Assembly: GCA_009914755.4 (NCBI GenBank)
Contig: CP086569.2
Span: forward strand, 8,640,001-8,704,000
Direction: 5' to 3'
Origin: the human T2T-CHM13v2.0 reference genome, Homo sapiens
Length of the DNA stretch: 64,000 nucleotides
Below are positions 28,856 to 45,247 of this stretch, piece after piece; position 1 is the stretch's first letter; each line of letters starts with the position of its first letter. Below the pieces are notes generated by a model, which saw nothing but the letters and a program-made list of their open reading frames with translations, made no database searches and had not been told where the DNA came from. The translations under genes were made by a program, and so were the position numbers.

Positions 28856-31800
28856 GTGGAAAAGATTGCTAATGTCTCTCCCTGGGTTGGCTGCGGAACA
28901 GTGAAACACTGGGAGATGCCTGTTTTTTGGTGTGGCATTTATTTATTTATTTGTTTATGTATTTATTTATCTATTTATATTTTGCAGGCAGAGGTGATTT
29001 GAAAGCCGGAGCGTCATGAAACACCTCCCAATTCACCGCGGATTCATGATCCACAGAAAAATGAAGAAAACAAAGCCCTGCAACCCAAGCAGAGCCACAC
29101 AGACAGGACAACACTAGGTTGGGAGACTCAAAAAAAAAAAAAAGAAGAAGAAGCGCTTACGTGTGTTAGTCTCATTCCTTTAAACAGACTCCACTTACAG
29201 GCACATGCACATATACACACACACACACACACACAAACATCCCACACTCGCTAGCCTCCCACAGAAGCACACAGCCAAGCAGCTACTGAGGATGCATGGT
29301 TCTGCAGAAAGCCCCATCTGGGAGAGGGTATCCTGTTGGAACACAGGCAGGATGTATCTAGAAATCACAGTGGGGCAAGTTTAAAAGAGACTCACCCCTA
29401 CAACATCTGTACAGGCTTGAGGAATCCTGCAGATATTTTGGATTCTTACAGATTTCACAGTTTATTCCTGGGGTTGTGCTTGAGGTTTCTTCAGTCTGGT
29501 TCACATCTGCCTTCTTTTGGGATCATGGCACTATCTGGAGAATCCAACAGAAAAGAGGTGAGAACACACTGCCATTGCACCTACATGGAGGTCTCCGCCG
29601 CCAAGCTGAGGGCCTTGTAGCTCGGCAATGATGACATTCGTTGTGACACAAGCCAGGGATCATAATCAGGCCTCGTTCCCTGAGTCTAGCACATGCACAG
29701 TCCTGAGGCAGGCAAGGATGCCCGGCTCTCAGAACTGTCAGCCTGCCTAAGCACAGGAAAATACTGCAGGCAAAACAGTCCTGGTGTTGCAATAAAGGCT
29801 GCCTGTGAACACCCACTGTGGGACACTAAATTTCTGCACGTCAAGGCCCCCTTGGGCCATCTCTGTCGTCTGGTCCCCTGGAGGAGGAGGCATTTTCAGA
29901 CTGTGAGGTGGTCACTGGAAACTGGTCTTCTGACTTTATTCCCCAAAGAGGCTGTGTGCAAGAATCAGGTCCCATGGGGATTGGAATATAGTCTGGTGTG
30001 TTTCTGAAGGTCCTTTGGGTGATAGAAACATGTCTGAGACCCCAGAGGTGGGTGCCAGTGAAAGACAGGCTCTTGACCTCACTGCTGCCCTTCATCCCGA
30101 ACCTCACAGGGGCTCTCTGGGAGAGGCAGAAACCACGACAAAGGCAAGTCCAAGGTGAAGCAGTGTTCTCACACCTCGGACTGGCTTATTGCAGGTTCAC
30201 ATGAGGTTAAGAAAGTATCTCAGAGGATTTCTGTGGCAGTGCAAAGTCTGAAAGGGTATCCAGTAGTGTTGTTGAGGGGCACTGTGTATTCCCCTTGAAA
30301 GCAAAGAAAAATCAAGGCTCGCCTGAGAGAAAGAGATGCCTTATGGTAGAGTACAAGCAATGTTCAATGACTCCTGTCAGAGGACCAAAAAGACTCCTGC
30401 AAAGTGGAAACAACCTCAGCCCCAACAAGGAGAAAACATCCCTCAACATGAAGGGCAGCCAACTTACCCGGAGTCCCTTTTGCTGTCTGAAATTCCTGGC
30501 AGCTAACTACTCTGTGGTGAGAGGCAGTCCCAAGCAGCAGCAGCCCAAGGAGGAACCAGACCCTCCACAATGAAAAGAACATGCAGATGAAGTGAAAAAT
30601 ATGCTAGATTATGAGGCAAAAAACAAACACGGCTGCCTGCTTTTCATCCTGCAGAAATCATGCAGCACTCTGATAGAAGTGAGAGAACAAGAGTTCCCTT
30701 GTTGGTGAATATAACAGGAATTTACAGTTTTAAAAGTATCAAATCTGCCCAGTCATTAAAGCTGACAGTGTTTAGAAGGAAACTCTCACACAATGGATTC
30801 CGATGAGGGTTATTCTCTGTGAACTGGAAAAAGTTTACTGTGGAAGTCTTTGAGCCATAACCAGGAAACCCTAGGTCAGTGAGAAACATGGAAGTCTGGA
30901 AAAGAAGAGGCAAGTATGGAGGTCATAGCTCACCCAGCATCAATCCATTCCATTCCCATTTGGCTCTGGGTATGAAAGCCCTCAAATCAGGAGTGTACCA
31001 GGATGGCCCCAATTTACACTCCAAATGTTCCTTGCCCGTTGGAATACTCTCATGTGAACACCGGGCCATGGTGTGGACTGGTTGTGTAATTAATTGAATG
31101 TAGAGATGGTGTTGAAAGCACCTTCTGTGACACCTGTCTTCAATCTTTTTGCAGTTGAAGTTGCAGGAACCCATCCACCCTTCTCCAGTTTGTATCCTCA
31201 CTCCTTTCTGAACTTATTACATCTCACACTCTATGTCCCAGAATAAAATCCCAAGATGATGGAGAAGTGTCTCCTCACAATGTGAAACACCTGCTCTCCT
31301 GGGAACCGAATTCAAGGTAAATTCAAGGGGGCACTGCAGACAGGACTGTGAGTTTTTCTCCCTGGGTTTGCCACAGGACAATGAAACACTGGGAGATGTC
31401 TGTTTTTTCATGTGGTGGGGGCTCCTTTTCTTTCTAGAAGATAGGTTTGTTTTGTTTTGTTCTGGTTTTTTGCAGGGGGAGGTGATTTGAAAGCTGGTGG
31501 GTCTTGCCCACCTCCCAGTTCAGACCCACAGAAAAATGAAGGACATGGAACCCCTGCAGCCCAAGCAGAACCACACAGACAAGTAACCAAAAGATTTAGA
31601 GACCCAACAACAACAAAAAAGCACTGAAGTGCATTAGCCACATTCCCTTAAGAAGTCTCCTCTTACAGGCAAACACACACACACACACAAGCACTCACAA
31701 ACACACAATGCAATATAGACCCGTAGACATCCAACACTAGCAACAATTCCACAGAAACATACAGCCCTGTAGACCCTGAGGCTGTGTGGTTCTTCAGGAA

Positions 31801-42790: not shown

Positions 42791-45247
42791 AGCCTCCTGC
42801 AAAGTGCAAACAACCTCAACCCCCATAACAAGAGAACGACTCCCAACCTGGAGCACAGCCAGCTTACCTGAAGTCTCTTTTGCTGTCTGAAATCCATGGC
42901 AGCTACATAATGTGTAGCAATAAACAGTCCCGTCCTGCAACATCCCAATGAAAGAGCCCCTTCACAATGAGAAACCTGTGCTGATGAAATGAAAGAGAGA
43001 CTAGATTACCAGGAGAAAGCCAAACACAGCTGCCTGCATCTCTTAATAAAGTAATCATCCAGCCCTCCGAAAAATGTGGGAGAACAAGACTTTCCTTGTT
43101 GGCAGCTGAAATGGGACTTTACAGTATTAAAAGTATCAAAGCTGCCCAGTCATTAAAATGTGACAGTGTTTAGAAGGAAACACTTTTGCAATGGATTCCT
43201 ATGAGGGTCATTCTCTGTGAACTGGGAAAAGTTTAGTGGGCAAGTCCTTGAACCAGACACAGGAAACCCTAGGCTGACTGGGAACATGGAAGTCAGGAAA
43301 AGAAGAGGCAAGTGTGGAAGCCACATGACACCCAGCATCAATCCATTCCAATCTCATTTGGCTCTGGGTATGAAAGCCCTCAAATCGTAAGTCTGCCAGG
43401 TTGGCCCCAATTTGCACTCCAAATGTTTCTTGCACATTGGAGTACTCTCACATGAACACTGGGCCATGGTGTGGACTGCTTGTGCAGTTAAGGGAATGCA
43501 AGGATGGAGTTGGAAGTGCCTTCTTTGTTACCTGTCTTCATTTTTCTGCAGGTGAAGTTGTGGGACTCCATCTACCCCTCACAAGATTTTACCCTCACTC
43601 CTATCTGACTTTATTGCTGCTCAAACTCTATGTCCCAGAATGAAATCCCAAGACAATGGAAGAGTGCCCCTTCATGTGAAACACCTGCTCACCTGGGAAC
43701 TGAATTCCAGGTAATTTCAAAGGGCACTGTGGACAGGACTGTTAATGTCTTTCCCAGGGTTGGCCACAGGAAAATGAAACACTGGGAGATGCCTGTTTTT
43801 TTGGTGTGGTGTGCTCCTCCTCTTTCTAGGAGGGTGGCTTTTTTCTCAGGGGGAGATGATTTGGATGCCAGCGGGTGTCGGCCAGCTTCCCACTTCACTG
43901 TGGATTAATGATCCATAGAAAAATAAAGAACACAGAGCCCCACAGCCAAAGCAGAGCCACAACCACAGGCCAACAAAAGGTTGGGAGACTCAAAAAAAAG
44001 AAGCGCTGAAGTCTGTTAGCCACATTCCTTTAAGCCTACTCCACTTACAGGCACATTCCCCCCTGCCCTTCCCACACACACACACAATGCCACACACACA
44101 CACACTCAGACATGACCACTCCCAACACTCTTACAGAAACATACAGCCAGCAGCTCCTGAGGCTGCATAGTTCTGCAGGAAGACCTACCAGGGAGAGAGC
44201 AACCCCCATTAAAACAGGCATGCTGTACCTAGAAATCGCACTGTGGCTAGTTTCAAAAAGACTCCCCCCCTACAAAGTCTAGGCAGGCCTGAGGAATCCT
44301 GTAGATCCTTTTGGCTCCTTAGGAATTTCGTGGTTTATTCCTGGGGCTGTTCTTGACATTTCTTCAGGCTGGCTCATGTCTGCCCTCTCCTGCGATCATG
44401 GGACTATCCTGTGGATTCCACAGATAAGACACGCAAGAGTCCACCACCGATGCACCTCCACGGAGGTCTCCTTCTCTGTCAAGATGCAGAGACTTGTCAC
44501 TACGCAACGCTGACGTTCATTTTGACGCTAGCCAGAACTCACCATCAGGCCTCCTGCCCTGAGACTAGCGCATGTGCATTCATTAGGCAGGTCCAGGGAG
44601 CCCGACTGTCAGAGCTGTAAGAGCTGAAGAAGAAGATGGTTCAGGCAGAGGCAGCCTGTTACAGGGGAAAAGGCTGACTGCGAAAACCCATTGCGGGACC
44701 CTAAAAGTCTCGAACTCAGGCCCATTTGGGTCGTCTACATGGTCTGGACCTGCTGCGGGAGGAGGCATTTCAAGACTGTGAGGTGGTCGCTGGAAACTAC
44801 TTTTCTGACTCCATTCTGGAAAGAGGCTATGTACAAGAATCCGGCCCCACTGGGATTGGAATATACTCTGGTGTGTTGTTGCAGAGGTGATAGAATCATA
44901 CCTTAGGTGATAGAATCATACCTGAGACCCCAGAGGCGGGTGTCCGCGAACGACGGCCGGCTCTTGCCCTCACTGCCTCCCTTCGTCATGGGACTCGCAG
45001 GGACTCTCTAGGAAAGACAACAACGACGGCAAAGGCAAGTCCAATGTGGAGCCGTGTTCTCTCACTTTGGACTCGCCTCCCACTGGTGCAGATGAGGTTG
45101 AGACAGTGTCTTAGAGGCCGTCAATGGCGATGGCAAGCCTGGAAAGGGTGTCCAGTAGTGCTGCTGAGGGGCCCTGTGGATTCCCCAATGAAAGCAAAGA
45201 AAAATCAAAGCTCGCCTGAGAGAACTAGTTGCCTTTTCCTAAAGTCC

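Follow-up and report, generated by a model that had tools for sequence, protein, structure and literature searches.

An exon-like block with splice-site-like borders in a diverged, two-armed tandem array of the human genome

Does a tandem array whose units carry an exon-like block, bordered by splice-site-like motifs, give rise to a repeated-exon RNA? This question is raised by a 64,000-nucleotide (nt) stretch of the human T2T-CHM13v2.0 genome (assembly GCA_009914755.4, contig CP086569.2, positions 8,640,001 to 8,704,000, forward strand; hereafter the window), which holds a tandem array of 2.47-kb units (range 2.42-2.51 kb) in two opposed arms. A first-pass annotation had proposed that the array may be transcribed as a repeated-exon long non-coding RNA (lncRNA) or messenger RNA (mRNA). 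Our analysis favours another explanation: the block is probably a pseudo-exon, or the relic of an exon, which was multiplied by an ancient amplification and has been decaying neutrally, most copies keeping a capacity for splicing if transcribed. Nothing in the sequence indicates that the array produces spliced RNA. Should RNA polymerase II read through an arm in the sense direction, about 7 of 10 units would offer motifs adequate for the splicing of a non-coding pseudo-exon.

The exon-like block and its splice-site-like borders

Searching the window by blastn with one unit and with the majority consensus placed about seven units in the right arm (R) and about eight in the left arm (L), so numbered in Table 1. 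The array reaches well past the segment delimited by the first-pass annotation, and the copies of the left arm are, as had been described, the reverse complement of those of the right arm. Candidate splice sites were scored with a position weight matrix built from textbook human frequencies, and not with MaxEntScan; on its scale an ideal donor reaches 12.6 and an ideal acceptor 17.5.

A first acceptor-like site, formed by a T run followed by CAG (TTTTTTGCAG/G, that is TTTTT(T)GCAG/G, the slash marking the putative splice point), is seen in all 11 copies that cover this position. Nine of them score 13-17, R1 and L1 reaching only 9.0 and 6.0. The T run is real, but its description as long was overstated, as it counts 5-12 T at this site. 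A donor-like site (xAG/GTAAAT) is found 155-163 nt downstream, with a consensus spacing of 162 nt, slightly less than the 165 nt first reported for the block. Of the 10 copies, nine retain its GT, and seven provide a usable donor with a score of 7.0-8.8 (R1, R2, R3, R5, R6, L2 and L3), while those of R4 (GAC/GTAAAT, 3.5), L4 (GAA/GTTAAT, 0.2) and L1 (GG, -1.3) are poor. The first-pass description is largely correct, the block being present in most units, but the claim that every unit carries the complete pair of borders holds for the first acceptor and not for the donor. A second acceptor-like site had been placed about 300 bp downstream. It does lie 302 nt past the first one in the consensus, but it is good in only 6-7 of 11 units: it scores 9.7-17.1 in R0, R1, R3, R4, R5 and R6, reaches a moderate 6.7 in L4, and in R2, L1, L2 and L3 it has become weak or was lost. 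Its T tract varies from about 4 to 25 T. An AATAAA hexamer about 75 nt past this second site is present in 5 of 12 units.

The recurrence of these motifs over the units brings no independent evidence, because all units copy one founder. No other 3' splice-site match of the consensus unit, whichever strand is read, scores as high as the two acceptor-like sites (16.3 and 13.3). The consensus donor (7.8) ranks in the middle: each strand has better donor-like sites, the highest scoring 11.0 and 11.3. It adds little to the configuration, since donor-like sites of such strength are common in the unit, where about 23 score at least 7.5 over both strands. The 30.8 kb of non-array DNA in the window contain four acceptors scoring at least 13 on the two strands together, and an acceptor of at least 13 accompanied by a donor of at least 7.5 within 50-300 nt occurs there 0.08 times per 2.47 kb, again over both strands. 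The configuration of the founder is moderately unusual, and it represents one event, not ten.

Conservation and history of the units

The presence of the motifs in every unit had been taken as a sign that the array may be transcribed. We measured conservation as the retention of the consensus base, which is 0.849 over the whole unit, 0.858 at non-CpG sites and 0.857 in the 162-nt block; the block stands at the 66th percentile of equal-size segments. A correction for composition was applied because A/T sites are better retained (0.89) than G/C sites (0.82-0.83). After this correction the block lies at z = 0.8, with 35% of the segments higher, and the donor region at z = 0. Owing to length changes in its T tract, the second acceptor region lies at z = -6. 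Comparison of the poly-T tracts with their flanks is divided: the first acceptor region is mildly above them (z = 2.7, weighed below), the second T tract below. The AATAAA hexamer, with its 5 of 12 copies, agrees with the neutral expectation (six sites at 0.858 give 0.40). The block thus decays at the rate of the surrounding unit. As it is kept no better than its surroundings, its conservation from unit to unit reflects identity by descent and is no sign of function; the inference drawn from cross-unit conservation is not valid.

The divergence of the units is star-like. All 55 pairwise identities fall between 73 and 79%, with no closer pairs within or between the arms, and the identity of single units to the majority consensus is 82-87%. 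This pattern suggests a single burst of amplification, followed by independent decay without concerted evolution. Counted over 28178 sites, about 3200 non-CpG substitutions separate the units from the consensus, a divergence of about 11-12%. Neutral rates in primates are 1-2.2 × 10−9 per site per year. A divergence of about 12% and these textbook rates would place the amplification at roughly 60-120 million years ago. The GC content of the units is 46-51% (about 47%) and they are CpG-depleted, with observed/expected ratios of 0.09-0.33. The best-kept stretches lie far from the exon-like block, at consensus positions 1971-2132 and 2217-2296; the best-kept short sequences (AGAACAAGAGTTTCCTTGTT, GCCCAGTCATTAAAACTGACAGTGTTTAGAAGGAAACACT and CCCACCCAGCATCAATCCAT, at 2016-2035, 2079-2118 and 2261-2280) show a retention of 0.91-0.95.

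The history that we favour would start from a founder, a 2.47-kb non-coding segment bearing four motifs: a very strong 3' splice-site-like motif (T run and CAG/G), a middling 5' splice-site-like GAG/GTAAAT 162 nt downstream, a second strong acceptor-like motif 138 nt further, and an AATAAA about 75 nt past the latter. This founder would have been amplified into a tandem array within the period estimated above. A later inversion of part of the array would have produced the head-to-head junction at about position 28850, and insertions of endogenous retroviruses (ERVs) and of an L1 element would afterwards have fragmented the left arm. The units would since have drifted independently and, as far as measurable, neutrally. 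The block, the donor, the second acceptor and the AATAAA would have decayed like the remainder of the unit instead of being maintained unit by unit. The junction itself is asymmetric: the left arm stops within a (TG)n at unit position ~533, while the first base of the right arm corresponds to unit position 188, just beyond the donor-like site. Unit positions 188-533 are found there on the right side only, and the exon-like block is absent from both arms at the junction.

Transcription and competing explanations

The best-surviving alternative, which we consider distinctly less probable than neutral decay, is that the arms are transcribed and that splicing joins their blocks to one another, or to the second acceptor, in a repeated-exon lncRNA, functional or tolerated. 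A possible driver of the right arm is a + strand LTR12-type long terminal repeat (LTR) at ~4.5-6 kb, which is directed towards the array. At 4552-4768 it contains tandem CCAAT-box repeats, in a 119-nt tandem duplication with CCAATCAG boxes. The duplication is typical of the LTR12 (HERV9) LTR, and the element is probably the 3' LTR of a + strand provirus at ~1-6100. Speculatively, this LTR could drive read-through that would enter the right arm in the sense direction.

Transcription in the germline can be sought in the substitutions. In germline-transcribed genes three rates (A>G, G>T and C>T) are on average raised on the coding strand, and it is the A>G asymmetry that follows expression in the male germline best; single genes differ, and their asymmetry can be negative (PMC2839347). 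Taking the consensus as the ancestor, we compared about 3200 non-CpG substitutions on the exon-sense strand. The A>G/T>C ratio amounts to 0.89 for both arms together (right 0.88, left 0.90), the G>T/C>A ratio is 0.89 and the C>T/G>A ratio is 0.97. None of the three is raised, and all fall a little short of 1. Each class counts about 250 events, enough for an A>G excess of at least 25% to be detected at more than 3 standard errors. Base counts showed that the exon-sense strand of the units is A-rich and not T-rich. The usual coding-strand skew runs opposite to this A-richness. These results count against sustained transcription of the arms in the germline in the direction that was proposed.

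Other data also speak against a repeated-exon lncRNA. Neither the block nor the donor is conserved beyond its surroundings, and the decay of the second acceptor runs ahead of expectation. Neither a promoter-like feature nor a CpG island was found at the junction or in the units (CpG observed/expected 0.1-0.3). The arms face away from each other, so that one transcript cannot use both. Moreover, the opposite strand of the unit holds splice-like sites that are equal or better (two donors at 11.3, an acceptor at 12.3).

Several observations nevertheless favour the lncRNA and weigh against a neutrally decaying pseudo-exon. Besides the LTR directed into the array, the two acceptor-like sites are the best 3' matches of the unit, and donors of 7-8.8 accompany the first of them in 7 of 10 units. 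As the acceptor and donor configuration is uncommon in the background DNA, the founder may have contained a genuine exon. The first acceptor region (-35 to +1) has a retention of 0.91 for 0.864 predicted, a z score (2.7) matched by only 2.9% of the segments. This over-conservation is weak, because the spread of z across segments is 1.7 and the region is one of four that were tested. The AG of the first acceptor is intact in 11 of 11 copies of the window and in five copies on metagenome contigs; the AG or GT core of decoy splice-like sites in other parts of the unit survives to a similar extent, commonly in 85-93% of the units. Insertions in or beside the arms run against the exon sense of the arm concerned: the left arm, with its exon sense on the - strand, holds ERV pieces and the L1 element on the + strand, and the + strand right arm terminates at a - strand Alu. 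Such an antisense orientation is favoured inside transcription units. The pattern comprises few events and was noticed post hoc, and an ERV at 59-64 kb (+ strand gag, 61114-61656) breaks it. Finally, weak or somatic-only transcription would leave no substitution asymmetry, and a negative asymmetry can also occur in individual transcribed genes.

It is improbable that the unit comes from a piece of a transposable element or retrovirus amplified as a 'megasatellite', whose splice-like motifs would be the element's own signals. Such arrays exist in the human genome, for instance the 3.5-kb MaLR LTR arrays (Warburton et al. 2008), and the family studied here occurs at more places than the window. 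However, no relic of a transposon or retroviral protein was found by Pfam in any consensus frame, the unit has neither internal repeats nor LTR-like ends, and it does not match the Alu, L1 3' end or MIR sequences that were compared with it. The members of the family outside the window, where a unit boundary is covered, are also tandem and not dispersed. They were obtained by scanning metagenome contigs with an 18-mer common to six window units, which gave 39 loci, eight of them further units of the family (L009, L012, L015, L020, L021, L024, L025 and L039, of which at least L015 stems from a human skin metagenome). These eight are 79-88% identical to the consensus and 79-89% to one another, and none is identical to a unit of the window; being distinct, they indicate that the family is larger than the window. 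Each of the five contigs that reach a unit boundary runs straight into a next unit, which is the basis for calling them tandem. On the evidence of these contigs, there are additional arrays, or a much longer array, in presumably human genomes. The AG and GT cores are intact in five of the extra members. Locus L020 has a mosaic structure. A 715-nt patch (nt 3-717) shares 95.8% identity with window positions 35732-36446, which span the 3' end of R2 and the block of R3, while the remainder is only about 72% identical to the colinear window sequence. The patch suggests that L020 belongs to a paralogous array in which duplication or gene conversion took place more recently. In locus L024, a fragment of L1 ORF2 is inserted directly after the donor-like site (nt ~777-1139).

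We regard as very unlikely a bolder version of the transcription scenario, in which transcripts of the arms, divergent or LTR12-driven, would have their blocks joined into a repeated-exon non-coding RNA of primates with introns that give rise to small RNAs of a class not yet in Rfam, and the absence of Alu and the antisense insertions would be marks of a transcription unit under selection over a long time.

SNHG14 with SNORD116/115, the C19MC host transcript and MEG8 with SNORD113/114 are repeated-exon non-coding host genes. There is hardly any likelihood that the array is a host gene of this type, with non-coding exons that are spliced and an intronic small RNA that is released. It resembles these genes by its tandem units of ~2-2.5 kb and by the short non-coding exon-like block that the units carry between an acceptor-like and a donor-like site. 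It differs from them by the lack of Rfam small nucleolar RNAs (snoRNAs) and microRNAs, by units that are 73-79% identical without a conserved core, and by two opposed arms without a promoter-like feature, whereas a host gene requires one orientation downstream of one promoter. Over the whole window, Rfam (15) detected no family at the gathering score; at E<=10 it gave ten scattered matches, none of which recurs at a fixed unit position. The small RNAs of the SNORD116/115, C19MC and 14q32 clusters are absent from it. ARAGORN found no tRNA. Sliding RNAalifold over the alignment of 11 units gave a structure conservation index of at most 0.60, hence no conserved fold, and no stretch is conserved enough for an embedded small RNA, the best 20-mers reaching 0.93-0.95. 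The sole candidate hairpin is not supported; a 10-bp palindrome at consensus 1476-1521 is not kept and shows no covariation. A C/D-box-like ATGATGG...CTGA within the block was also rejected, being neither conserved nor flanked by a terminal stem.

Equally remote is the descent of the array from an internal repeat of a protein-coding gene, in the style of the DAZ 2.4-kb repeat, LPA or DMBT1, the block then being a defunct coding exon or an mRNA segment. The DAZ repeat has one 72-bp coding exon per unit, and DAZ genes lie in head-to-head pairs. Unit size, one exon-like block per unit and arrays facing each other are common to both systems, and the 162 nt of the founder block are divisible by 3. 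In contrast to the DAZ exon, which is coding and in frame, the block of ~160 nt has stops in all frames, and the array is far older. The DAZ 2.4-kb repeat is listed in Table 2 of PMC2588610. Stops occur in all three frames of the consensus block, which approximates the founder, and in 28 of 30 frames of its ten copies, and the lengths of the copies (155-163 nt) differ by non-multiples of 3. The block frames carry stops and the lengths are out of register, which excludes the mRNA that had been proposed. No domain was found by Pfam in the five longest open reading frames (ORFs) of the consensus, and a search with 4103 amino acids of concatenated array ORFs retrieved no protein at E<=1e-10, a strict cut-off at which weak homologues are missed. 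Exact look-up of a 158-amino-acid ORF of the window in public assemblies returned no record. An ORF at consensus 1411-1842 (~108-137 codons) recurs, being open in 8 of 11 units. Its substitutions are neutral, with a synonymous fraction of 0.27 for 0.28 expected and 3.5% of stop-creating changes for 3.4% expected.

Neighbouring features and relation to known systems

The positions of the arms, units, motifs and insertions are given in Table 1. Repeats of the window comprise Alu copies, the LTR12-like LTR, ERV gag/pol ORFs and an L1 3' end of 225 nt, 95% identical to an L1PA-type sequence; the Alus, the LTR and this L1 end indicate a catarrhine primate. No CTCF core motif occurs within the array. 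No Alu is found inside the ~33 kb of the array (window 6141-45235), where about 8 would be expected at the density of the flank; ERV and L1 elements, unlike Alu, did insert into it. The 18.7-kb right flank contains 9-10 Alus, all on the - strand (45247-62372). Three simple or tandem repeats also lie there: a (TA)n-rich microsatellite at 49246-49545, an AT-rich tandem repeat with a 100-nt period (4.4 copies) at 58196-58631, and an 80-nt tandem repeat (2.9 copies) at 60887-61120, just upstream of an ERV gag ORF.

Table 1. Features of the array in window coordinates (L1 as a unit name denotes the first left-arm unit; the retroelement is called L1 element)
Feature	Position	Strand	Description
Right arm	28852..45251	+	R0 partial, R1-R5 complete, R6 cut by an Alu
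Right-arm unit starts	R1 31140, R2 33641, R3 36148, R4 38619, R5 41116, R6 43540	+	
Ends of the right arm		+	R0 begins at unit position 188; R6 ends at unit position ~1693, with an Alu there
Left arm	6141..28849	-	L1-L4 and fragments; reverse complement of right arm
Left-arm units	L1 23507-25975, L2 21024-23506, L3 18573-21023, L4 16897-18572	-	
Left-arm fragments	25989-28849 and 6141-10973	-	
Left-arm interruptions	7908-9073, 10973-16897; 26770-26994		ERV pieces; 3' end of L1 element
Head-to-head inversion junction	28849..28852	.	Asymmetric
Exon-like block R1	31155..31316	+	162 nt; acceptor 9.0, donor AAG/GTAAAT 8.4; stops in all frames
Exon-like block R2	33653..33815	+	163 nt; acceptor 13.9, donor GAG/GTAAAT 7.8
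Exon-like block R3	36157..36318	+	162 nt; acceptor 13.5, donor CAG/GTAAAT 8.8
Exon-like block R4	38629..38783	+	155 nt; acceptor 13.1, donor weakened, GAC/GTAAAT 3.5
Exon-like block R5	41125..41285	+	161 nt; acceptor 17.1, donor TAG/GTAAAT 7.0
Exon-like block R6	43552..43710	+	159 nt; acceptor 13.6, donor CAG/GTAATT 8.6
Exon-like block L1	25805..25962	-	158 nt; acceptor weakened (GAAG, 6.0), donor destroyed (GG)
Exon-like block L2	23333..23493	-	161 nt; acceptor 15.9, donor GAG/GTAAAT 7.8
Exon-like block L3	20850..21011	-	162 nt; acceptor 13.9, donor GAG/GTAAAT 7.8
Exon-like block L4	18398..18558	-	161 nt; acceptor 14.7, donor weakened, GAA/GTTAAT 0.2
Truncated exon-like block L8	6141..6279	-	Acceptor-like site intact, 13.7; donor end missing
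Second acceptor-like site, R1	31460..31476	+	G of AG at 31475; score 12.6
Second acceptor homologues	28987, 33990 (lost), 36475, 38918, 41432, 43849	+	Position of G of AG
Second acceptor homologues	25653 (lost), 23197 (lost), 20714 (weak), 18263	-	Position of G of AG
Best-kept short stretches in R1	33170-33300 and 33420-33450		Example
Recurring ORF, examples	35120-35524; 24105-24506; 6951-7361	+; -; -	
Insertions, antisense pattern	344-3366, 8644-9042, 12161-15607	+	ERV ORFs
Insertions, antisense pattern	26770-26994	+	L1 element
Insertions, antisense pattern	45247-45467	-	Alu

The first-pass annotation had likened the array to transcribed macrosatellites. Macrosatellites such as DXZ4, D4Z4, SST1/NBL2, TAF11-Like and ZAV have monomers that are more than 95-99% identical and vary in copy number; they are often GC-rich with a CpG island, some are transcribed and some contain inverted monomers (PMC3018141, PMC2588610). 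The array shares with them a kilobase-scale tandem unit, and inverted monomers with some of them. It differs by its 47% GC, its depletion in CpG and the absence of any sign of concerted evolution. Its units are tandem and longer than the 1 kb expected of a macrosatellite, but their identity of 73-79% lies below the 90-95% that monomers of this class exceed. The 2.4-2.5 kb repeat SST1, with 64% GC and monomers more than 97% identical, was rejected as its identity. No match to the array was found in the table of human arrays with units longer than 2 kb (Warburton et al. 2008), and literature searches covering ~2.5 kb tandem repeats, repeated exons, macrosatellites and primer-like 19-26-mers of the unit did not lead to the locus.

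Pseudo-exons are decoy pairs of splice sites in non-coding DNA. The block resembles them by a good acceptor associated with an ordinary donor, by its exon-like spacing and by a conservation that does not exceed the background. The difference is that here one pseudo-exon has been multiplied by the amplification of the segment that carries it. This calls for caution in the reading of tandem arrays: a motif shared by every unit is uninformative on function unless it is kept above its surroundings. If splicing of the array were true, it would add one more case of a pseudo-exon turned into a repeated-exon lncRNA by segmental amplification, a modest result unless a product or a constraint were found. 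As an old, un-homogenised and Alu-free member of a larger family, the array could serve as a yardstick of neutral evolution.

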